From a virus (taxonomy: Duplodnaviria > Caudoviricetes), in IMG/VR virus record IMGVR_UViG_3300044477_000012, positions 1-40,278 of that record: a stretch of DNA of 40,278 nt; one strand, given 5' to 3'. Positions 3,371 to 39,427 of this stretch are shown piece after piece. The position numbers were made by a program, and so were the translations under genes. Position 1 is the stretch's first letter; every line of letters begins with the position of its first letter. Under the pieces are notes generated by a model that did not search any database, was not told the origin of the DNA, and saw nothing but the letters and a program-made list of their open reading frames with translations.

Positions 3371-3694
3371 ATGAAAGAGTGTGCGACAAGACAGGTTTTG
3401 AAAGATTATAGAATATTAAGTGAACGCCCATTAATAGACCAAAACGGCAGAGTTTATGTAATGATAAGCCATTCTGAATTAGACAATTTAATCGGTAGTC
3501 TAATGCACTTAATGGATTTAAATAGTGACGTACAGTTTAGGGAAGCTATGAAATCAGAAATTAAGATGAGAACTCGCCAATGGTTAAACGACGAGTATTG
3601 TAATTCAGGATATGAATATAATGCCTACATATCAGGTGCGAAAGTCATTGGTATTGGTGATGACTACGAATTAGTCATCGACACAGCTAAATAA
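3371..3694 (+). CDS. Hypothetical protein (stand-alone cassette)
   Basis: 107-aa ORF with its own -10, flanking inverted repeat and downstream terminator. Confidence 0.65.
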   Translation: MKECATRQVLKDYRILSERPLIDQNGRVYVMISHSELDNLIGSLMHLMDLNSDVQFREAMKSEIKMRTRQWLNDEYCNSGYEYNAYISGAKVIGIGDDYELVIDTAK

Positions 3695-3704
3695 TAAATT
3701 AATC

Positions 3705-3729
3705 ACTTTGCGGTGATTTAATGGTTTAA
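3705..3729. repeat. Right arm of the inverted repeat
   Basis: ACTTTGCGGTGATTTAATGGTTTAA. Confidence 0.85.
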
Positions 3730-3736
3730 GCTATCA

Positions 3737-3762
3737 TAACGCTCTAGGAGCGTTAATTTTTT
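3737..3762 (+). terminator. Intrinsic terminator between convergent genes
   Basis: TAACGCTC-TAG-GAGCGTTA followed by ATTTTTT. Confidence 0.6.
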
Positions 3763-3829
3763 AAATACGATAACTTATACTACTTTTGGTCTAAAACGTG
3801 TCCTACGACACGCTAGGTATCGAAAACGA

Positions 3830-4057
3830 CTAGTTATGATAATATATACCATCAAGTTTTTTATTAAAACGATAATTAGACTCTTTTGCTAATCTATTCC
3901 AATTTTTCTTGTTAATTTTAGCCTCTTTTTTAGTGGTTTTTAAATCACTCGGTCGAGGATTAAAGCATTTATGGCAGAAATAGTTACCGGATTGACCGTA
4001 AATTAATTCACCATTAGGTATTTCTTTGTGGCATATTTGACATTTTATTGTTTCCAT
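3830..4057 (-). CDS. Small zinc-finger protein
   Basis: CQIC...CHKC, basic C-terminus; AAAGGGA upstream. Confidence 0.65.
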   Translation of the reverse strand: METIKCQICHKEIPNGELIYGQSGNYFCHKCFNPRPSDLKTTKKEAKINKKNWNRLAKESNYRFNKKLDGIYYHN

Positions 4058-4066
4058 ACGGTTATA

Positions 4067-4231
4067 TTATCCCTTTTTAAACTCAACGGCAATATCTATT
4101 TCAGTTGCTCCGTTATCTATTAACCACTTACGAGCTTTTATGGCGGTAGAATAGTCTTCATAGACTTTTGAGCCTGGTTTATCGTCTTTATCTAGCCAGC
4201 TAAGAATATATTTACCAGTATATTTTTTCAT
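4067..4231 (-). CDS. Hypothetical 54-aa protein (not in ORF track)
   Basis: MKKYTGKYILSWLDKDDKPGSKVYEDYSTAIKARKWLIDNGATEIDIAVEFKKG; RBS AGAAAGGA 5 nt before the ATG. Confidence 0.7.
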   Translation of the reverse strand: MKKYTGKYILSWLDKDDKPGSKVYEDYSTAIKARKWLIDNGATEIDIAVEFKKG

Positions 4232-4487
4232 AATATCCTTTCTTTAATTTTAACCATTAGACCGCCTTTCCCGAGCTATGAACTAGGGATTAGTATTTAT
4301 AAACCTTCACATCATACCTAAACTCTTTCAACTTCCCGATCTACTAGAGGGTATTATCTCGAACTGTATAGACATCGCAATGGCTAGGTTGACGTTTAGG
4401 CGGTAGTTAATCAGAGCCTAGACTTAACGTCATCTACAAGTTCTTCAGCAGTTTTATGATTGGCTGCAAACAATTATGTAAAGTGGC

Positions 4488-4516
4488 TTGCAAAAATATT
4501 ATCAAACTGCTATAAT
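4488..4516 (+). promoter_or_regulatory. Sigma70 promoter driving a short antisense RNA
   Basis: TTGCAA-17 bp-TATAAT with TG extension. Confidence 0.75.
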
Positions 4517-4522
4517 GTAAGT

Positions 4523-4570
4523 AATTTGATAGTGCAATACTAAGAACTGCCAACTAGGTGGTTCTTTTCT
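4523..4570 (+). ncRNA. Candidate cis-antisense RNA of about 48 nt
   Basis: Starts 7 nt after the -10; ends in hairpin AAGAACTGCC-AACTA-GGTGGTTCTT plus T-rich tail; two G:U pairs favour this strand; no ORF. Confidence 0.55.
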
Positions 4571-4612
4571 TATCTTTATTTTTACCCCCTATCACAATTT
4601 GATAGTGCAATA
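4523..4612. repeat. 17-bp perfect direct repeat AATTTGATAGTGCAATA
   Basis: Copies at 4523-4539 and 4596-4612. Confidence 0.9.
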
Positions 4613-4622
4613 GAGTAATTTC

Positions 4623-4651
4623 ATTATATGTTATTTTATTGACTATTTCAA
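4623..4651 (-). promoter_or_regulatory. Leftward sigma70 promoter for the 4231/4057 operon (leader about 385 nt)
   Basis: Minus strand TTGAAA-17 bp-TATAAT. Confidence 0.75.
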
Positions 4652-4686
4652 CGCGCTAATTCTTATTCTGTGGAGAAACTGCGAAC

Positions 4687-4795
4687 AAAAAAACTACGCC
4701 AGGGTGGGCAAAGCGTAGTTTCGTAGTGTATTTTGTTTTTCTTGAAAGGGCTTACGATCTCGTCTCTTTACCCATCGGCAAAGTAAGTTTCGTAC
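4687..4795 (-). ncRNA. Candidate small RNA of about 110 nt (sRNA2)
   Basis: Own promoter; hairpin CUUUGCC-GAUG-GGUAAAG pairs fully only on this strand; ends in terminator AAACUACGC-loop-GCGUAGUUU-UUUU; no ORF. Confidence 0.55.
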
Positions 4796-4801
4796 AATAT
4801 G

Positions 4802-4829
4802 ATTATAGCATAACCGGCATAAAAAACAA
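4802..4829 (-). promoter_or_regulatory. Leftward promoter of sRNA2
   Basis: Minus strand TTGTTT-16 bp-TATAAT with TG extension. Confidence 0.65.
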
Positions 4830-4880
4830 GCCCACCTAGCTGAAAGGGCTATCTGCAAAGAAGCTTACTAGGTGGTTTGT
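4821..4880 (-). ncRNA. Candidate small RNA of about 60 nt (sRNA1)
   Basis: Starts 7 nt after a -10; stem CCACCUAG/CUAGGUGG followed by a U-tract; loop contains AGCCCUUUCA. Confidence 0.5.
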
Positions 4881-4886
4881 ATATAT

Positions 4887-4915
4887 ATTATATTGCCATT
4901 GTAATATTTATCCAA
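4887..4915 (-). promoter_or_regulatory. Leftward promoter of sRNA1, overlapping the rightward early promoter
   Basis: Minus strand TTGGAT-17 bp-TATAAT. Confidence 0.55.
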
Positions 4916-4927
4916 AAGTAGTATAAT
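4899..4927 (+). promoter_or_regulatory. Rightward early promoter of the recombination operon
   Basis: TTGTAA-17 bp-TATAAT; AATGAAAGGGTT leader; ATG at 4960. Confidence 0.75.
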
Positions 4928-4959
4928 TCTAGTATATTAACTAATGAAAGGGTTAAAAA

Positions 4960-5571
4960 ATGGTGCAAACAAGCAAAGAAATAGATAAACTTAAACTACA
5001 GCTTGATATTAAGCAAGTTACTCGAACTACATCGTTATTAAATGAAAACCAAATTCAGAAGATTTGGAACTCAACACCAGATAGATATAAATATTCACGA
5101 CCAGCAAAAGGAGGTGGTAACTGGACTTATATTAAAAGTTCTTATGTCCGTAAAGTCCTTGATAGCGTGTTTGGCTTTAACTGGTCATTTGACATTGAGA
5201 CATCTTTAGGCGAGGCGTTTGAAATCGCCAAACTTACAAAGGTATGTGTAGTAAAAGGTAAGCTTACCGGACGAGTTAAACACGATGGTGAGTGGATTGA
5301 ATTATCTAAAACACAATTTGGTCGAGCCGAAGTCAAAATGAAAAGAGATAGTAACGATCCACTAGACTTTGGCAACAATATGAAAGCCGCCACATCAGAC
5401 GCACTTAAAAAATGTGCCTCATTATTCGGAATTGGCGCAGATGTTTATGAGGCCAGTGAGTTCCAAGAGATTGAACTAATTGGTTCTGAAGAAAACTCTG
5501 ACAGAGCCAAACTTACAGCAGATCGAGTGAAAAAATTAAGTAAAGAACTTACAGTGGAAGAAGTAAAATGA
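4960..5571 (+). CDS. sak: Rad52/Sak-like single-strand annealing protein
   Basis: GGGNWTYI..SYV...LDSVFGFNWSF and KAATSDALKKCASLFGIG.DVY, the Rad52/Rad22-family motifs. Confidence 0.85.
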   Translation: MVQTSKEIDKLKLQLDIKQVTRTTSLLNENQIQKIWNSTPDRYKYSRPAKGGGNWTYIKSSYVRKVLDSVFGFNWSFDIETSLGEAFEIAKLTKVCVVKGKLTGRVKHDGEWIELSKTQFGRAEVKMKRDSNDPLDFGNNMKAATSDALKKCASLFGIGADVYEASEFQEIELIGSEENSDRAKLTADRVKKLSKELTVEEVK

Positions 5572-6005
5572 TAACTCTAAATTACGAAATCAACGAAGAA
5601 GAGTTAGCCAAGACTATTAACGAGGCCATCAACTTAAACGATAACGATCAGATGTTTGGCAATTTATGTGAAGTTAAGCGCGCTAAAAAAGACCTTGAAG
5701 AAGCATTAGAAAAACTAGATACTATCGAGTCAATCGCAAAAGGTTTTATCGACTCAAAAGCAAGGCAACTATATGGTAATGACTGGCAGACTATCGTAGG
5801 AAAAGGCTATAAAATTACTCGCTCATCAACTGGTAATGTATATGTAAGAAACCCTGATATTCCGGTTAATAAAAAATTTCTAAAAATTGTCGAAAGTCTA
5901 GACACCAAAGCGATTGACGCAGAACTTGAAAAAACACAGAAGCTACCTAAGGGAATTGAAGTCAATCCTAGTCGCGGAACTTCAATCAGAATAACGCTTA
6001 AATGA
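5568..6005 (+). CDS. Hypothetical recombination-module protein (coiled-coil N-terminus)
   Basis: 145 aa; ATGA overlap; C-terminal LPKGIEV...SIRI recalls Gp157/Gam-like proteins. Confidence 0.6.
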   Translation: MITLNYEINEEELAKTINEAINLNDNDQMFGNLCEVKRAKKDLEEALEKLDTIESIAKGFIDSKARQLYGNDWQTIVGKGYKITRSSTGNVYVRNPDIPVNKKFLKIVESLDTKAIDAELEKTQKLPKGIEVNPSRGTSIRITLK

Positions 6006-6571
6006 AAAAAACATTGAAATTAAGTTACTCGATTATAAGTCAGTGGCAGGCCGGAAAGTATGAAGAAGCTATTGCTACATATCTAGGCAAACCATTTCCG
6101 GCTACTCCAGCTATGGAACTAGGTAAACTTTATGACCAGAAATGGAACAAGTATATTGAAGAAACTGGCGAATTACCAAAAGAGCTCGGCGGTGGGAAGT
6201 TAGACAATCCGCGCGTTCAGGTTAAGTATGCTGTTATTCTACCATTAGGCGATGACTACCAGATTCTATTTAGGGGTGTTCCAGATATTACAGAGCCAAC
6301 AATCATAACTGATAATAAGTGTGGTCGCACAGAAGCTAATGCTTATGTATCTAAAAAGCAATTAGATAGCTACTCGTTATTCATACCAGAAGCTACTACG
6401 GGAATTTACAGGTGTTACAATCCATACCTCGACACATTAACTGTTGGGGTAAAGTTCTTAAATGAAGAAACCCGAGAAAACGCCATTAACGATATAATAA
6501 CTACTGGCGGCGAGATACTAGATTATTTACTAACTCAGAAGTTATTTATAGATTATAAGGAGACTAAATAA
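6002..6571 (+). CDS. PD-(D/E)xK-superfamily exonuclease-like protein
   Basis: LSYSII, TPAMELGK, RGVPD...ITDNKCG, QLDSYS; adjacent to the annealase. Confidence 0.7.
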   Translation: MKKTLKLSYSIISQWQAGKYEEAIATYLGKPFPATPAMELGKLYDQKWNKYIEETGELPKELGGGKLDNPRVQVKYAVILPLGDDYQILFRGVPDITEPTIITDNKCGRTEANAYVSKKQLDSYSLFIPEATTGIYRCYNPYLDTLTVGVKFLNEETRENAINDIITTGGEILDYLLTQKLFIDYKETK

Positions 6572-6648
6572 TGCCATTACTTTGTGATACGAACCAATTA
6601 GACGAAGAAATGTTAGATAAGGCGATTGATAAATTAGATGAAAATTGA
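6571..6648 (+). CDS. Possible 25-aa mini-protein
   Basis: MPLLCDTNQLDEEMLDKAIDKLDEN; AAGGAG RBS; TAATG coupling. Confidence 0.4.
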   Translation: MPLLCDTNQLDEEMLDKAIDKLDEN

Positions 6649-7012
6649 TAAAGCCGACGAGTATTTTTCAAAGTATGTCCGACTGAAGCAGGGCAAATGC
6701 CAACGTTGTGGCTCATTAGTTAAGTTTAATGGTAGAGGCGATCCTATATCGCACCAATTAAGCCATTTTCAAGGTCGCAGGAAAGAAGCAACTAGATTTG
6801 ATTTGGACAATGCTGATACATTATGTGGTGCTTGCCACCTTTATTTTACGGCCAATCCATACGAACACGTTCAATGGCAGGTTAGGGTTAAAGGGCAAAA
6901 ATTAGTCGATGAGGTAGTATTCCGGTCTAACCAATACGTTAAAAAAGATCGCAAAATGGCAGAGATGGTGTGGAAAAAGGCATATAATGGCCTCTTGAAA
7001 GAAAAAAAGTAG
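6638..7012 (+). CDS. NinG/Rap-like HNH endonuclease
   Basis: D..FSKYVR...CQRCG...SHF.GR...ATRFD.DN...LC..CH. Confidence 0.8.
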   Translation: MKIDKADEYFSKYVRLKQGKCQRCGSLVKFNGRGDPISHQLSHFQGRRKEATRFDLDNADTLCGACHLYFTANPYEHVQWQVRVKGQKLVDEVVFRSNQYVKKDRKMAEMVWKKAYNGLLKEKK

Positions 7013-7022
7013 CTTAAGCCTA

Positions 7023-7051
7023 TTGACTTTATTAAACGCTCGTGCTATACT
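7023..7051 (+). promoter_or_regulatory. Strong early sigma70 promoter
   Basis: TTGACT-17 bp-TATACT with TG; shares GCTCGTGCTA and downstream AATCAATGAAAGGGTT with the promoter at 14096. Confidence 0.85.
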
Positions 7052-7057
7052 GAAGCT

Positions 7058-7282
7058 ATCAATCAATGAAAGGGTTGACGCAAATATCAGGGCCAGTAGC
7101 AATAACATAGGAGCGATAACCTATAGAAAAAACTATCGAGAGCGACCGCCCACCATTTTAAAAACTTAGTTACCTTCAAGAGCCTAACCAACAGAGTAGG
7201 ATGTGAAATCCATCTCAAAAGTCGATAACGTAAGACTCAAATCTCGTCAAGGTGGGTTCTCGTAGGTAACTAACGAAAGGGT
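7058..7282 (+). ncRNA. Structured leader or ncRNA of about 225 nt
   Basis: TTAGTTACCT (7166-7175) pairs with AGGTAACTAA (7264-7273), with an extended G:U stem and internal hairpins. Confidence 0.5.
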
Positions 7283-7285
7283 AAA

Positions 7286-7402
7286 ATGTTCAGATATAAA
7301 TTATTAATTAAAAAGTATCTACCAAAAGCGATTATACTAGCCATATTGGTCGCAACGATTACACTATGGGTTCAGGATATAATCTGGATTAACGGTAGAT
7401 AG
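7286..7402 (+). CDS. 38-aa single-TM peptide (not in ORF track)
   Basis: MFRYKLLIKKYLPKAIILAILVATITLWVQDIIWINGR; GAAAGGG RBS. Confidence 0.65.
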   Translation: MFRYKLLIKKYLPKAIILAILVATITLWVQDIIWINGR

Positions 7403-7412
7403 AAAGGTCGAA

Positions 7413-7670
7413 ATGAGCAAGAAAGAAACATTTGAACAGTTACAAGAAGACACGATAGAACTAATTAAAAACAAAAAGGATTATATGAAAAAAGCACCTA
7501 AAACTTACGAACTTAAACAAATTATACGAGCAATTGTAGCCACTTTAGTATTACTAGGTATTGGAGCCTTTGCCGGAATTACAATTAACAATTCGATTAA
7601 CAGCACAATCAACTCACAAGTGAAAGAGCAAGTAAAGTCTTTTACAGTCGAGCTAGAAGCCAAGCAATAG
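7413..7670 (+). CDS. Single-TM membrane protein; probable N-terminal part of a frameshift fusion
   Basis: TM AIVATLVLLGIGAFAGITI; AGAAAGG RBS. Confidence 0.75.
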   Translation: MSKKETFEQLQEDTIELIKNKKDYMKKAPKTYELKQIIRAIVATLVLLGIGAFAGITINNSINSTINSQVKEQVKSFTVELEAKQ

Positions 7671-8101
7671 CTCAAACGGCACAACTGGCACCTTTACAGC
7701 CTATAACGCAACCTAAGCCTTCCTGTGAAGCCACAGACTGTATTATTTGGAACTTCTTTATAAATAATGGATATTCCGAAATACAGACTGCCGGAATAAT
7801 GGGAAACTTACAGCAAGAACACGGCTTACAGACTTCAGGAGAAGGATTGGCGCAGTGGAGCGGTGGAAGGTTAGCGGCTCTGATGCAGCGAGGAGAGCCA
7901 TATAGCCTACAAACGCAACTGGATTTTCTATTATATGAATTAAACACTTACGAAAGCGAGGCGAATAGACTAGTCAAACAATCAACCACCATCGAGGAAG
8001 CAACAATTTATTTTCAGAATAAGTTTGAAAGATGTGGACTTTGCCGACAAGATAATAGAATAAATTACGCTTATCAGTTTTATAGCAAATTTAACAATTA
8101 G
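7601..8101 (+). CDS. Phage tail-type lysozyme domain (Phage_lysozyme2-like); frame open from 7601 with no canonical start before the domain
   Basis: IWNFFINNGYSEIQTAGIMGNLQQE...GLAQWSGGR...QLDFLLYEL...FER....R..YA; the ATG at 7799 lies inside the domain. Confidence 0.8.
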   Translation, partial: QHNQLTSERASKVFYSRARSQAIAQTAQLAPLQPITQPKPSCEATDCIIWNFFINNGYSEIQTAGIMGNLQQEHGLQTSGEGLAQWSGGRLAALMQRGEPYSLQTQLDFLLYELNTYESEANRLVKQSTTIEEATIYFQNKFERCGLCRQDNRINYAYQFYSKFNN

Positions 8102-8253
8102 ATGTAGTAACGTGGTTAGTAAGAAGTAGATTGGGAGTAGACCAGGCAAACCCTTTAGGAAAACGCGATAATCCAAACTCCTCGACTGGTGTTACTAGGC
8201 AACTGATCTTAAGCCAGACCTAGAAGGCTTACTAGCCGCACTATTACATCTAA
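8098..8253 (+). ncRNA. Structured intergenic RNA with an interrupted closing stem of about 24 bp
   Basis: 8098-8109 pairs with 8242-8253 and 8112-8123 with 8228-8239; three G:U pairs. Confidence 0.55.
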
Positions 8254-8270
8254 TAAATGAAAGGGAGAAT

Positions 8271-8474
8271 ATGGATATAAAAGACAAAGATGGCAAAGTT
8301 ATTATCAGATTAAGTCGCATTACATCTGACGAAAAACTAGGATATTGGTGGGCGATTGCTACTGATAAGCAGTGGATTGAAATACGCACCACAAAGGCGG
8401 GCAAGATAATACCATTTGAGGTACACAAAGGAGAACACCCATATTTTACACCAACTGAAAGGATAAACAAGTGA
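8271..8474 (+). CDS. Hypothetical protein
   Basis: TGAAAGGGAG RBS; 67 aa. Confidence 0.7.
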   Translation: MDIKDKDGKVIIRLSRITSDEKLGYWWAIATDKQWIEIRTTKAGKIIPFEVHKGEHPYFTPTERINK

Positions 8475-14095: not shown

Positions 14096-14124
14096 TTGAC
14101 TAATCAATAGGCTCGTGCTACAAT
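14096..14124 (+). promoter_or_regulatory. Strong early sigma70 promoter
   Basis: TTGACT-17 bp-TACAAT with TG; same design as the promoter at 7023. Confidence 0.85.
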
Positions 14125-14150
14125 AGGGGTATAATCAATGAAAGGGTTAT

Positions 14151-14360
14151 ATGAAGATAAATTACCAACCAAGTTATTCAAGGATACCAGTAGCAATTAA
14201 ATACGATTATATGAGCGCACCAACTTACGCCGAGATGATGGCTCGACGCAGGATATACGAGTATAAGCATAAAATGGGCTACATTAAACAATTCGTAGAT
14301 AAAGAACTAAAGCAAGTAATTTCAGATCATCGCAATATGATTTCGGTGGTATCAAAATGA
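14151..14360 (+). CDS. Hypothetical protein
   Basis: Follows TGAAAGGGTT; 69 aa. Confidence 0.65.
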   Translation: MKINYQPSYSRIPVAIKYDYMSAPTYAEMMARRRIYEYKHKMGYIKQFVDKELKQVISDHRNMISVVSK

Positions 14361-18000: not shown

Positions 18001-18175
18001 AAAAGTCCGTAAGGTTGTCGTAAAGCCAAAAAAACCTAGCAATAAAATATACTTAGCAAATCTTATGGCGGTTTTAGGAAACGGTGATGTAGTCCACCTA
18101 GATACAATGAAGGTAGAAATAGTCGATAAATTAACAGGTAAGCCCTTATTCAAGGCGAAGGAAATTAAACAATGA
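17990..18175 (+). CDS. Small basic hypothetical protein between groES and groEL
   Basis: 61 aa; overlaps both neighbours; GGAG RBS. Confidence 0.6.
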   Translation: MTNKKVRKVVVKPKKPSNKIYLANLMAVLGNGDVVHLDTMKVEIVDKLTGKPLFKAKEIKQ

Positions 18176-19830
18176 ATCAAGATACGACTAAAGTAACGAC
18201 ATTTGGTAGCGATGCTCATAAGTCTATAAGACTGGGCATTGATACTATGTGCGACGCAATAAGCTCAACTTATGGCCCTGGTGGTCGCAACGTATTAATT
18301 AAGAAGCGATATGTTCACCCTATACTCACACGCGACGGTGTTACTGTCGCTAGAGATATAGCCGGTCATGGCAATAAACTCAAAGACCCTATTGCTACCG
18401 AAGCAGCCAAACTTGTCTATCAAGCAAGCGAAAAGACCAACAAGACTGCCGGAGATGGAACGACTGCCACTGTTGTGTTACTATCTGAACTATATAAGTC
18501 AGGTTATCAACGAGTAGTGTCCGGCCAAGACGCTATGCTAGTGAAAAAACAACTTGATAAGGATAGACTAAAAGTGGTTGAGTTCGTAAAGTCCAAGAGT
18601 ATCGAGTGTGATAAATCTAAACTCAATCAGGTGGCTACAATCTCAAGTGGCGATGACAACCTAGGTAAGATGATTAGTGATCTTGTCTACGATATAGGAT
18701 CAGACGGAGCAGTAACAATCGAATATCATAATGCGCCTCACGTAGAAGTTGAGAAGGTAACGGGATACCTATTCGGATCGGGATTTAAAAACCTAGCAAC
18801 GACTGTCGAATTTGAACAACCGATTGTATTTGTTACGCAAAAGAGAATGGCCGCCAAAGCGGATATAACACCTATATTAGAACTGGCGCAAAAGTCTCAA
18901 AAACAATTCGTCATTATTGGTGATGTAGCCGGTGCGGCCCTAGAAACTCTAGTATGGGCAATACAAAACCAGAAAGCAGATGGTCTTATTATCCCACCTG
19001 TTGCCTATGGTGCCGACGGTCATGATTACTTCGAGGATATTGCTATATACACAGGTGCTAGATTATGGCTGGAATCGGACAGCTTTAGTGGTGTTACACT
19101 AGATGACTTTGGGTCTGTCGAACGTTCGAGGATATCGCGCGATAAAGCAATACTATTTGGTCGATCCAGTATTACTCGTATAGTAAACGAGTCAGTAACT
19201 ACCGAGGTAAAACTAGACGATGGCACGATTAAAAACATAGAGACAGTCAGGCAAGTTCCCTGTGATATTAGCTTGACTGAGGCCATACAAGATCGCATTG
19301 GGACGATCCGCCAACAGATGAAAGGCGACATGACACCTGTCTTACAGGAAGTCCTTGAGACCAGACTAGCCAAGTTAGCCGGTAAGGTTTCTATTATTAA
19401 AGTCGGGGCTGCAACTGATGTTGAGAAAGAGGAACTATTCTTTAGAGTAGAAGACGCGGTAGAAGCTTGTAAATCTGCTCTATCTAGTGGAGTAGTAGCT
19501 GGCGGTGCGACAACATTATTATTCGCTAGTGAATTAGATGTCGATCCTTTTATTCGAGACTCGCTGCGTGGGCTATTCAAACTTTTGATGAATAATGCCG
19601 CAGAAGATGGTGGTTATCGCATGAATCAAGTGCTTAACGCTGGCTATGGAAAAGGCTTCAATTTACGTAATATGACTAAAGAACCGATTGATCTTCTAAA
19701 ATCTGGTATAGTTGACGCTACTAAAGTAGTGTTGCAGACTGTGGAAAACTCATTTAGTGTTGCTGGTGCATTACTAACTACTGGCACAGTAATAACCGAG
19801 GAAGTTCAAGATGAAGCCAATAAAAAATAA
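18172..19830 (+). CDS. groEL: Chaperonin GroEL (Cpn60)
   Basis: TYGPGGRNV, TRDGVTVA, AGDGTT, QVATISS, RLAKLAG.V.IIKVGAATDVE..E...RVEDA, GVVAGG, GIVD.TKV. Confidence 0.96.
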   Translation: MNQDTTKVTTFGSDAHKSIRLGIDTMCDAISSTYGPGGRNVLIKKRYVHPILTRDGVTVARDIAGHGNKLKDPIATEAAKLVYQASEKTNKTAGDGTTATVVLLSELYKSGYQRVVSGQDAMLVKKQLDKDRLKVVEFVKSKSIECDKSKLNQVATISSGDDNLGKMISDLVYDIGSDGAVTIEYHNAPHVEVEKVTGYLFGSGFKNLATTVEFEQPIVFVTQKRMAAKADITPILELAQKSQKQFVIIGDVAGAALETLVWAIQNQKADGLIIPPVAYGADGHDYFEDIAIYTGARLWLESDSFSGVTLDDFGSVERSRISRDKAILFGRSSITRIVNESVTTEVKLDDGTIKNIETVRQVPCDISLTEAIQDRIGTIRQQMKGDMTPVLQEVLETRLAKLAGKVSIIKVGAATDVEKEELFFRVEDAVEACKSALSSGVVAGGATTLLFASELDVDPFIRDSLRGLFKLLMNNAAEDGGYRMNQVLNAGYGKGFNLRNMTKEPIDLLKSGIVDATKVVLQTVENSFSVAGALLTTGTVITEEVQDEANKK

Positions 19831-24509: not shown

Positions 24510-25226
24510 ATGCTTACACAAAGACTTTCACTCACAAACCAAGACGCACGTAAATTAAGTTCTACGCGCCTACATCAAATCGGATCAATCGCTGAAACAG
24601 CCGATGGGCGAGTATATCGCTACAGTCGAGCTGCTGCAGTCGCTCTTGATGCTGGAAAATTAAATATCAATGCCGACTTAATTGCTAACCATACTAACTG
24701 TGCTGTCGCTGCTGCCGTAGCGGTTGGCGCAACAGAGGTTACTGCTACTCTTGGCGCAACTGCTGCTACTCTTGACCAATATCGAGACGGCTTGCTAGTT
24801 GTTAATGACGCTACTGGTGAAGGTATTAATTACCTCATTAACGGAAACATGGCTGCTGATTCTGCTGGTACGATCCGAGTAACATTAGACGAACCGATTG
24901 CAGTAGCTCTAACGACTTCGAGCGAAGTGACATTAAAGTATAATACTTACGACAACGTTATAATCTCGATTGCCGATCAAGCCGACCAACCAGTTGGTGT
25001 CAACAATATTGCTGTAACAGCAAGTTACTACTGCTGGTTACAAACCCGTGGCGAATGTGCCGTACTTGCTGATGAAGCAGTTACTAAAGGCGCAATCCTT
25101 ACTATTGGTTCAAGCACTGTCGGAGCTGTTGAAGCTGTCGATGCAGTTGCAGAGCCGGTTGTAGGTGTAGCTTCCGAGGCACTAGTTGACACTGAATACC
25201 GTAGTGCATTCTTAATGATGGACTAA
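24510..25226 (+). CDS. Capsid decoration/cement-like protein
   Basis: G......DGRVYRY...A, YCWLQT.G, Ala/Val-rich; directly after the capsid gene. Confidence 0.65.
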   Translation: MLTQRLSLTNQDARKLSSTRLHQIGSIAETADGRVYRYSRAAAVALDAGKLNINADLIANHTNCAVAAAVAVGATEVTATLGATAATLDQYRDGLLVVNDATGEGINYLINGNMAADSAGTIRVTLDEPIAVALTTSSEVTLKYNTYDNVIISIADQADQPVGVNNIAVTASYYCWLQTRGECAVLADEAVTKGAILTIGSSTVGAVEAVDAVAEPVVGVASEALVDTEYRSAFLMMD

Positions 25227-37136: not shown

Positions 37137-39427
37137 TGGATTATGAATCACTACTCGGTAGGCAAAAAACCACTCCAAAACAATCGTCTGGTGGTCTTAA
37201 AGGCATAATAAGTAGTATAACGCAACCATTTACCGAGACCGCTTCTAATGTGGCAAAAACTATAGCTGGAGTCGGTGCTACTTCTGGTTTAAAGTCTAAT
37301 ACTGAATCTATGCTTAAATTAAATAAAGAGCGTAGTTCCTATCTAAAATCATTATCTGATGCCGATTTTGATAAGCCAGAGGTCAAGGCTAAGTTACAGG
37401 ACTATACCGATAGAGTAAATGCTTTATCTGGAAAAGGTCAGGAGATTAGTAAGTCTCAAGCTGTCCAAGAATTTCAGGCTATTGATCCAGTTAAAGCCGC
37501 TGCTAATGCGGCAGATGTTGCTCTTACGATAGGAAGTTTAGGAGCGGGAGCACTGGCTAAAACTGGTGCTAAAGTTGGGACTAAAGCACTTTTAGGACAG
37601 GCAATCAAGACTGGACTTAAAGAAGGTGCAATCTATGGTGGTGCTTATGGAGCATTAAATCCTCTTAAGGAAAAAGGGACTGCTGCAACTGGTGAAGATG
37701 TTTTAGGTAATACCTTATCTAGCGCTGTTACTGGGGGATTAATGGGTGGCGCAGTAGGTGGCGGTATCAACTTAATCGGAAAAGGTACTAATTTAGTAAG
37801 TAAAATGACTAACCGAAATAAGATACCACTGACTACTGACGCTGAAAGACTGGCGTTGGCTCAAGAAGCAAAGTCTGGTATTGCAAATCTTGGTAAAAAA
37901 GCAAAGGCATCGGGAACCAGTCTACTATCTGCTGATTTAAATGTTACACCTAAAGAGTCAGTAAAGTTCAATCTCCGCAATACAGCAGATGACTTATATA
38001 AGAACTATGGAATGACTGTTAAAGAGGCGGCGGATTATACTCCGATCGTAACCGGTGGCGAAGGTATTACCACTGAGGCATTTAATACAGCGTTGGAAAA
38101 CACCAAAAATGTGAGTTTTAAAAACTTTGCATCTAATTTACGTAAACAACTCGACGATCCAGAGTTTGTCGCTACACACGACCTTACTGCTGCTCAGATT
38201 AAGAACTTTAAATCAACAATTCAGAAATATGATGACAGAATCAATCCTGCCTCGACAAAAGCCTTAACTAGTGGAAAAACGTATAACATTAATGCTTCAA
38301 CTAACGCTAAAGATGCATTTGACGTTGTAAAAGACTTGGAACGAAAAGGGTATAGTAATATCAATTCACCTAGTCAATCTAAAGCGGCAATCGCTGACTT
38401 ACAGCTCAAAATGGCTGACGATATCAAATCATCTATATACAATTCTTCCGAAGGTAAGGCGGCTTTTGGAGAAATTAAAAAATATGCCGCTGATACGTTA
38501 GATAATATTGCTCAACAGAGCGGTAATGCCAAACTGGCTAAGGTTGCTGATTCAATTAGAAACGCCGCTACCTATGAGGAATATAGAAAAATATCTGCAC
38601 CATTTGTTAATGCCCAACAACTAGTTGATGCTTCATTATCTAAAAACGCATCTGATGTCGGCATAGGAATAACTGGGACTTTGATGAAAGGTGCTAAAAA
38701 GACTTTAGGGCCAACGGCTGGGCGCGTTTTATCAACTACTGGAAATATCATTAGTGAAGCGGTCAGGACTCCACAACGGGCTACGCTGTTATCTAGTATG
38801 TTAAATAAGGCACAAGGCGATGGCGTATTAGGTACGGCTGTTAGGCAGACAGTAGGAAGACAAGCCGCCACTCAACCAACCGAACAAGAAATCACTCAGT
38901 CCTCCATAACGCCTACTACCGAGACCCCTACCGAAACGAGTACCGACGTATCTAATATATTTGGCAACAAACAGGTTATTCAAGCGTTATTAATGCAGGA
39001 TATACAAAAAACTGGTGGTAAAAACACATCTAGTATTATCGCTCTATATAATGCATTTAAACCGTCAGAACCCACGTCTGCCGAGTCTGGAATTAAGCAA
39101 GTCTCTGCATTGGTTTCAAACCTTAAAGGACTATACGATAAGGCCGGTGGTGGATCTACCGGTGGCCCAATAGGTGTTATTGGTGGCGAATTATCTAGTT
39201 TTGCTGGTAATATAGGATTAAATGATGCCACGAAAGTGTATAACGACGAGAGAAAAGGGGCAGTAACGGTACTTGCTAAGAATTTATTTAGTCAATCTGG
39301 TTCATTATCTGATACTGATATAGCCCGAGCTGAAGGTTTATTACCGAGTATATCTGATCCTAAAGACGTTGCTGCACAAAAATGGGATTCTATAGATAAG
39401 TTATTAATAGCTAAGAGAGGATATTAG
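37136..39427 (+). CDS. Large internal virion / DNA ejection protein
   Basis: 763 aa; glycine-zipper segments GAIYGGAYGA and GGLMGGAVGGG; G.LSD.DI motif near the C-terminus. Confidence 0.65.
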   Translation: MDYESLLGRQKTTPKQSSGGLKGIISSITQPFTETASNVAKTIAGVGATSGLKSNTESMLKLNKERSSYLKSLSDADFDKPEVKAKLQDYTDRVNALSGKGQEISKSQAVQEFQAIDPVKAAANAADVALTIGSLGAGALAKTGAKVGTKALLGQAIKTGLKEGAIYGGAYGALNPLKEKGTAATGEDVLGNTLSSAVTGGLMGGAVGGGINLIGKGTNLVSKMTNRNKIPLTTDAERLALAQEAKSGIANLGKKAKASGTSLLSADLNVTPKESVKFNLRNTADDLYKNYGMTVKEAADYTPIVTGGEGITTEAFNTALENTKNVSFKNFASNLRKQLDDPEFVATHDLTAAQIKNFKSTIQKYDDRINPASTKALTSGKTYNINASTNAKDAFDVVKDLERKGYSNINSPSQSKAAIADLQLKMADDIKSSIYNSSEGKAAFGEIKKYAADTLDNIAQQSGNAKLAKVADSIRNAATYEEYRKISAPFVNAQQLVDASLSKNASDVGIGITGTLMKGAKKTLGPTAGRVLSTTGNIISEAVRTPQRATLLSSMLNKAQGDGVLGTAVRQTVGRQAATQPTEQEITQSSITPTTETPTETSTDVSNIFGNKQVIQALLMQDIQKTGGKNTSSIIALYNAFKPSEPTSAESGIKQVSALVSNLKGLYDKAGGGSTGGPIGVIGGELSSFAGNIGLNDATKVYNDERKGAVTVLAKNLFSQSGSLSDTDIARAEGLLPSISDPKDVAAQKWDSIDKLLIAKRGY

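Follow-up and report, generated by a model that had tools for sequence, protein, structure and literature searches.

How does a phage control its early genes when no repressor gene is found at its divergent early promoters? The window, by which we mean the whole 40,278-nucleotide stretch of DNA that we analysed, is an entire 40-kb virus record. Its last 60 bases are repeated near its start, so the assembly is probably complete and circular. Contigs of one DNA run, possibly the window's own source, match positions 3400-8400 without differences. The genes include a Rad52/Erf-like recombinase (4960), NinG, terminase, a chaperonin, a P22-like portal, a major head protein and a holin. The chaperonin gene (Cpn60/GroEL, 18172-19830) lies beside the packaging genes and is present in 12 of the 14 related genomes compared. 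No integrase, CI-like repressor, antirepressor or partition gene was recognised among the ORFs scanned (49 against Pfam, 23 and 49 against PHROGs), most of the small ORFs matching no family. There are two HTH-type ORFs (12447 and 14499), neither with a match in the other genomes compared.

An earlier note on this sequence proposed that two tandem leftward small RNAs sit where a repressor gene would be expected, and that they act on several early ribosome binding sites through a shared seed. We put the probability at roughly 70% that these small RNAs do silence the early genes by pairing, acting as a timer. The anatomy of the units, their complementarity to the leaders and the covariation of the two were computed; from these we infer transcription, its strand, pairing and repression.

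The host is likely to belong to the Saccharibacteria or a related CPR group, because the head protein's best annotated relative is that of TM7 phage DolZOral124_53_65 (39% identity), which likewise encodes a chaperonin and has GAAAGGG leaders under its strong promoters. According to an excerpt of the source, the anti-Shine-Dalgarno (anti-SD) motif is retained in the 16S rRNA of CPR bacteria, except in a subgroup of Parcubacteria (PMC9297842). With the motif retained, GAAAGG is plausibly an ordinary SD variant. Its exact pairing with the 16S end is presumed here.

Two predicted RNA units and their targets

The overlapping divergent promoters that the earlier note described are indeed present, each matching the consensus at 10 of 12 positions, and two promoter-hairpin-U-tract units lie on the leftward strand (Table 1). 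The description of these units as free of ORFs needs qualification. A mechanical 54-codon TTG ORF (minus strand, 4858-4694) spans both; we rejected it as a gene, given its TTG start, the absence of an SD upstream and the gaps in this region among relatives. Matches to the promoter pattern are as a class not above chance (68 in the window vs 66 in shuffles), and a terminator scan of the window listed neither unit. Rfam gave no match at gathering score in the window and none at E up to 5 between 4200 and 8300; on eight relative loci it gave a single irrelevant weak match. ARAGORN found nothing.

Table 1. Predicted regulatory features of the window and the sites that the seeds would contact.
Feature	Position	Strand	Remarks
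Early promoter P1 (predicted)	4899-4927	+	10/12
Target 1	4945-4955	+	RBS of the Rad52/Erf-like recombinase gene 4960-5571
Early promoter P2 (predicted)	7023-7051	+	Promoter scan
Target 2	7067-7077	+	Seed-complementary, at 5' end of P2 leader, no gene start behind; same in G009 and G006
Structured RNA in P2 leader	7166-7273	+	Conserved; holds GGUGGGU (7251) paired in cis
Weak secondary target	7275-7282	+	RBS of 38-codon ORF 7286
Secondary target, 8 bp	8258-8265	+	RBS of ORF 8271
Early promoter P3 (predicted)	14096-14124	+	Promoter scan
Target 3	14139-14150	+	RBS of ORF 14151-14360; top-ranked target of sRNA 1
sRNA 1 promoter (predicted sigma-70)	4887-4914	-	10/12; overlaps P1; arrangement kept in L010 and L008
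sRNA 1 (predicted, ~60 nt)	4821-4880	-	Stem 4875-4868 with 4839-4832, loop 26-28 nt, U tract 4826-4821
sRNA 1 seed	4841-4852	-	3' end of loop; 11-12 bp, one or two G:U, to three promoter leaders
sRNA 2 extended -10 box (predicted)	4802-4810	-	From sequence; similar box in L010
sRNA 2 (predicted, ~109 nt)	4687-4795	-	5' hairpin, single-stranded seed, A-rich linker, terminator hairpin, U tract; one homologue (L010)
sRNA 2 seed	4743-4752	-	Identical to 10-nt core of sRNA 1 seed

The word TGAAAGGG occurs six times on the plus strand and never on the minus strand (Markov expectation 0.48 on plus). Its variant TGAAAGGGCT is confined to the two units (4743 and 4841; expected 0.03), and TGAAAGGGTT to 4945, 7067 and 14139 (expected 0.03). 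Hence the claim that the shared seed is complementary to the leaders of three early promoters stands. The TGAAAGGGTT sites sit 14-17 nt below -10 boxes scoring 10-11, a placement reached by 9 of 1500 random positions. Position 9 of TGAAAGGG is C in the two unit copies and T in the three copies below early promoters, a difference that yields a G:U pair if the minus strand is RNA. When the loop of unit 1 was shuffled, at least 3 of 31 strong-promoter leaders were matched in 154 of 20000 trials. The units end at least 65 nt before the nearest target, and the matches are 8-15 nt long.

The motif had also been read as the ribosome binding site of early genes. This holds at 4945 and 14139 but not at 7067, where no gene start follows; the only frame there, read from the sequence, has 14 codons from an ATG at 7066. 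Likewise, GAAAGGG is indeed an early feature (5 of 27 early starts, none of the 35 starts outside the early block), but the statement that late genes mostly use GGAG was too strong, since GGAG precedes 11 of those 35 starts and 8 of the early ones.

Two checks on pairing that the earlier note had suggested came out in its favour. Opening the 10-nt seed is predicted to cost 2.7 kcal/mol in sRNA 1 and 0.16 kcal/mol in sRNA 2. In an accessibility-aware ranking of 65 5' regions of the window, the leaders of 14151, 4960 and P2 come 1st, 2nd and 5th for sRNA 1, and the same three promoter leaders occupy ranks 2, 3 and 5 for sRNA 2. The net pairing energy is predicted to be modest, between -7 and -10 kcal/mol, and the 3rd rank for sRNA 1 goes to what is probably a chance site, at +20121.

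Unit 2 aligns with a second unit in the relative L010, with the same extended -10 box and a common hairpin apex. In the terminator stem, pairing appears by eye to be kept despite changed bases; 6 of 16 predicted pairs are changed on both sides, in what is an imperfect alignment of two sequences. The L010 unit has a seed that differs from that of unit 2, and its target is absent from that 2.6-kb contig. At the place of unit 2 the relative G009 carries a different hairpin. With a single homologue of different seed and another hairpin in G009, unit 2 is less well supported than unit 1.

The word GCCCACCCU is found in the terminator loop of sRNA 2 (4703-4711, minus strand) and in an inner loop of G009's unit 1 (L008 4886-4894, minus strand), and a similar word lies downstream of the unit of G006, near 37270.

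Seeds and leaders across related phages

Relatives were collected by recombinase searches (5, 8, 80 and 1 loci) and by alignment of the head protein (5 more), after which whole records were fetched. We tabulated 14 distinct units after dropping duplicates (L001/L006/L008/L009, L027, L032 and G019), and left out the doubtful candidates G005, G011 and L069. All 14 have a common design: a -10 box, a G+C stem of unrelated sequence, a loop with the seed near its 3' end, and a U tract. Contiguous stems measure 8-16 bp (24 in one unit, counting tail pairs). Loops are 22-33 nt long in 11 units and 10, 45 and 47 nt in the others. The motif ACUC(U/C) opens 7 of the 14 loops (shuffle mean 0.42; 0 of 5000 as many); the window loop has a degenerate form of it, the exact motif being absent. 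When 11 units were aligned by sequence alone, they fell out of register and no consensus fold emerged.

In the closest relatives, whose recombinases are 84-91% identical, the unit occupies the same place. Behind the same divergent promoters stands a hairpin whose stem differs and whose loop complements the phage's own recombinase RBS. There are three such seed/RBS pairs: that of the window, that of G009 and L010, and that of L007. The loop matches its own RBS over 13 nt in G009 (a unit shared with L001, L006, L008 and L009), over 12 nt in L010, and over 8 nt of a different word in L007. The agreement reaches beyond the adjacent gene. G009 has its own variant at three places, exact over 13 nt at the neighbouring RBS, over 11 nt in the P2 leader that lacks an ORF, and over 12 nt in the leader of a third promoter. 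With a different seed, G006 repeats this three-site arrangement. The gene that follows the third target of G009 is unrelated to ORF 14151. Thus the covariation of seeds and targets that the earlier note had proposed to look for is found: seeds change with their own leaders across related phages. Since hairpin and matching sites have changed together in many of these phages, the RNAs likely silence early genes by base-pairing.

At their best, the seeds match sites 11-21 nt below strong -10 boxes. The window, G009 and G006 have three such sites apiece, of which one lacks a gene start; G003, G002, G018 and G014 have two apiece, G004 has five, and G015 has one target. The units of G002, G018 and G014 are not beside a divergent target, so adjacency is common and not required. 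A clear unit was not found in G001, G005, G007, G010 or the TM7 phage, and G008 has a weak and doubtful candidate. At the sRNA unit's place in G001, directly before the recombinase promoter, there is an ORF that looks HNH-like by eye (L015 5621-6136). G018 carries three short TATAAT-hairpin-U-tract units of a different kind, with loops of 8-9 nt (26264, 31391 and 35452). Promoter-pattern scans returned one known relative and two unrelated chance matches (L096 and L097), and a neighbour-gene scan found no loci.

Among the eight unit-bearing genomes compared, no regulatory-type window protein is common to all; only recombination and virion genes recur. G006 has a unit and lacks the recombinase. 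The absence of a common regulatory protein and the unit without recombinase fit a system that is RNA-only or assisted by the host.

How strong is the covariation statistically? In a matrix of loops against adjacent leaders for nine units, the cognate leader was best in eight of nine rows and 4 of 362880 permutations were as good (3 of 40320 without L010), in a test that is partly circular because the units were first found partly by their match to their own RBS. G002, which has no adjacent gene, was left out of the matrix; G003, mis-picked by the rule, was kept as a miss. In a held-out test we dropped the best match of each genome and considered SD-bearing promoter leaders only. Matches of at least 8 nt were found in 22 of 228 own and 103 of 3121 foreign leaders (p 2e-5), and matches of at least 10 nt in 7 of 228 and 19 of 3121 (p 1e-3). 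A target-blind search of 15 near-complete genomes yielded 77 promoter-stem-U-tract hairpins. Eight of these, one per genome, match at least two of their own leaders (shuffle mean 0.83, maximum 4; 0 of 300 reach 8), and in 7 of the 15 genomes this two-target test failed. The p values are optimistic, because the detector thresholds were set after the first examples had been seen and the phages are related, not phylogenetically independent. The intended negative set comprised 61 loci whose recombinases are distant, together 808 kb; it contained 67 hairpins, 18 of which had an 8-nt match of any kind. The set is not clean, since L032/L033 and L053 are members.

One could also argue that the hairpins are general anti-SD decoys that damp host translation, the match to the phage leaders being a by-product of common SD use. 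In most seeds there is indeed a core complementary to the SD, and several (G003, G004, L053, G009 and L010) also match foreign leaders. However, even with the best match dropped, the match rate is about 3 to 5 times higher for own leaders than for foreign ones that bear an SD. The seeds of G015, G018, G014 and L033, moreover, mainly cover the spacer between SD and AUG or the start codon, so they are more than mimics of the anti-SD. We consider host-directed decoys very improbable.

It also matters on which strand the hairpins act. In 9 of 14 units the seed strand has the longer contiguous stem; the two strands are equal in 4 units, and in 1 the seed strand has the shorter. The folding energy is lower on the opposite strand in 3 of 10 units, and unit 1 of the window has the stronger fold on the plus strand (-21.3, z -3.2) and the weaker on the proposed minus strand (-17.7, z -1.6). 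Mismatches flanking the seed matches are of G:U type in 10 cases and of A:C type in 6, a tally that gives no clear RNA polarity. The plus-strand fold of unit 1 would suit ordinary bidirectional terminators, whose loop word is the relic of a duplicated plus-strand promoter-RBS module; the early promoter-leader modules are also alike within each phage. Yet a relic would not recur at the same loop place in the unrelated stems of 14 units while tracking each RBS, and the loop copies in the window have no gene start behind them. This explanation seems to us far-fetched.

The lack of a clear G:U bias in the flanks also speaks for a DNA operator for a repressor protein, with a copy just below each early promoter and auxiliary copies upstream. 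The stoperators of cluster A mycobacteriophages are, like the repeated word, asymmetric, oriented and phage-specific repeats at early promoters (PMC6550527). All six copies of the word lie on one strand, the sites fall 11-21 nt below early -10 boxes, and a DNA repeat would covary between phages too. What an operator leaves unexplained is the extra copy, which always lies in the loop of a stem that, read on the other strand, comes after a -10 box and before a U tract; nor does it account for the coincidence of the word with the translation start region. There are six copies here against 20-30 in L5. Moreover, stoperators are protein-bound DNA sites, numbering 20-30 per genome, with no hairpin RNA unit described in the part of the source that we used (PMC6550527). 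A CI-like repressor was not found among the window ORFs scanned, of which most small ones match no family, and the two HTH-type ORFs have no match in the other genomes compared. We therefore regard an operator as quite improbable and prefer RNAs that pair with the leaders.

The P2 leader and other elements near the switch

The second target lies in front of no gene. Three phages have retained the site, and it changes along with the seed. Its occupation leaves predicted access to the RBS at 7275 unaltered (3.5 vs 3.4 kcal/mol), and it may serve as a sponge or in termination.

Further down the P2 leader there is a conserved RNA element of about 110 nt with a long closing stem and a GUGAAAUCC hairpin, for which Rfam gave no match. 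Homologues are found in G009 (37655-37770) and G001 (24948-25002), with clear matches in 2 of 16 records. In the three sequences 10 of 30 predicted pairs are changed on both sides. The earlier note had proposed a second contact here, between the GCCCACC terminator loop of sRNA 2 and GGUGGGU at 7251. The complementarity exists, but we rejected the contact: the site is buried in a cis stem, opening it in the full leader would cost 12.4 kcal/mol, and its first rank for sRNA 2 arose only with a truncated target that excluded the cis partner. The three homologues differ at GGUGGGU with compensating changes in cis, and the site is not conserved. Hence, of the proposed multi-target anti-RBS system, the part resting on covariation, accessible seeds and ranking survives and the contact at 7251 falls away.

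Several other elements deserve mention. Between 4488 and 4651 two promoter-like sites face each other (plus 4488-4516 and minus 4651-4623), with a terminator-like hairpin at 4542-4566. A 17-bp direct repeat lies at 4523 and 4596, and its copies in L010 both bear the same changes. The region may encode a third small RNA, one antisense to the leftward leader, or may consist of origin iterons. Through an 11-bp repeat (4553-4563 and 4867-4877) the 5' arm of sRNA 1 is complementary to the predicted plus-strand RNA 4542-4566. Positions 3775-3789 are a perfect 15-bp inverted copy of 4912-4926, the spacer and -10 box of P1, which suggests a leftward promoter antisense to ORF 3371-3694. Finally, the intergenic region 8102-8252 (plus strand) is predicted to form a single long hairpin (-40 kcal/mol, 8102-8270) just before the RBS at 8258.

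Proposed timing, possible immunity and known phage RNAs

How would the circuit work? Pairing of trans-acting sRNAs over the SD and spacer is an established way of blocking 30S loading (PMC12197685). By prediction, the two units opposite the early operon yield RNAs of about 60 and 109 nt. The seed common to both would pair in trans with the leaders below three predicted early promoters and block ribosome loading there. Since the sRNA and early promoters are all of the host sigma-70 type, both sets would fire together on phage entry. The RNAs, protected by their hairpins, would accumulate and stop early translation after a delay, giving a pulse of early protein followed by shut-off. Such a circuit would be a negative-feedback timer that needs no repressor.

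An incoming phage would be silenced by these RNAs if its leaders were the same, and spared if it had a different seed/leader pair; immunity of this kind is our inference. It could even be the main role, with the sRNAs replacing CI in a carrier or episomal state resembling lysogeny. The units lie at a divergent promoter pair, and close relatives have three seed/leader pairs, which suggests that specificity is diversifying; the heteroimmunity of P1 and P7 likewise rests on small differences in ImmI, as far as the consulted part of the source goes (PMC6906374). A primary role in immunity is unlikely, however. No integrase or partition gene was recognised in the window ORFs scanned, a scan of the genome collection yielded only a 2.5-kb contig in a MAG, and short seeds would make repression leaky. 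It would also differ from the timer in purpose only, the pairing mechanism being the same.

The closest known systems are RNA repressors of enterobacterial phages. In satellite phage P4 an RNA alone, CI, controls the early operon through a short seed that lies in a loop or bulge. Like CI, the target at 7067, with no ORF behind it, may affect transcription. CI differs in being cut out of the very leader that it regulates, where it brings about premature termination, and the window units have no Rfam match. The c4 RNA of phage P1 is cut by RNase P processing from the same transcript as its target, lies upstream of the one antirepressor operon it controls, and differs in seed and target between phages, which gives heteroimmunity. 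Our units resemble c4 (RF01695) as phage antisense repressor RNAs with a short seed. In contrast to c4, they are closed by one stem, would be transcribed from a divergent promoter of their own and have targets below every early promoter; they diverge from their targets, no antirepressor family match was found among the ORFs scanned, and neither RF01695 nor any other Rfam covariance model matches in the window. P22 sar, lambda OOP and aQ are encoded opposite their targets, and antisense RNAs of the sar and OOP type are perfectly complementary to them over a long stretch. They have one target each, whereas the window sRNAs lie apart from several targets and would reach them with seeds of 8-15 nt. 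The literature describes c4 of P1/P7 as a phage-encoded antisense RNA repressor (Citron and Schuster 1990, via PMC2864571), and sar, OOP and aQ as small phage RNAs that block or degrade early regulatory mRNA (PMC12197685). VpdS, PreS, DicF and 24B_1 are phage-encoded sRNAs that act in trans by short imperfect pairing. They are described as Hfq-associated and directed mostly at host mRNAs or one phage gene, and the portion of the review used here describes none that covers all early leaders (PMC12197685).

As in trans-encoded sRNAs, the seed is predicted to be accessible, complementary to translation start regions and kept in evolution. A consensus -10 box, stem and U tract, found in 14 units, would supply an own promoter and terminator, consensus matches not being proof. 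Most likely, then, these predicted RNAs form a new family of trans-acting sRNAs that silence early genes, working like c4 of P1 without being a member of its family. A literature search covering titles and opening lines of abstracts gave no description of it; the supplements of the two Weinberg motif papers could contain a related motif that is not in Rfam.

A bolder version, which we consider doubtful, is an all-RNA switch in phages of Patescibacteria. It would combine a fixed hairpin scaffold, a conserved ACUCU handle and a swappable seed, and would silence the leader of every early promoter. Immunity groups would arise by co-evolution of seed and leader, and the ORF-less P2 leader, which opens with a decoy copy of the target, would act as an RNA antirepressor by sequestering the sRNA.

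The timing of genes and the exclusion of competitors have hardly been studied in phages of CPR bacteria, whose genomes are small. If our reading is true, an RNA of 60 nt that addresses all early transcripts through a common leader would make a compact regulator. Only a few enterobacterial phages are known to have one of this kind; here it would extend across a whole phage group. Specificity is directly testable, because nature provides both matched and mismatched pairs of seed and leader. The scaffold could also become a minimal silencer of translation that can be re-targeted.
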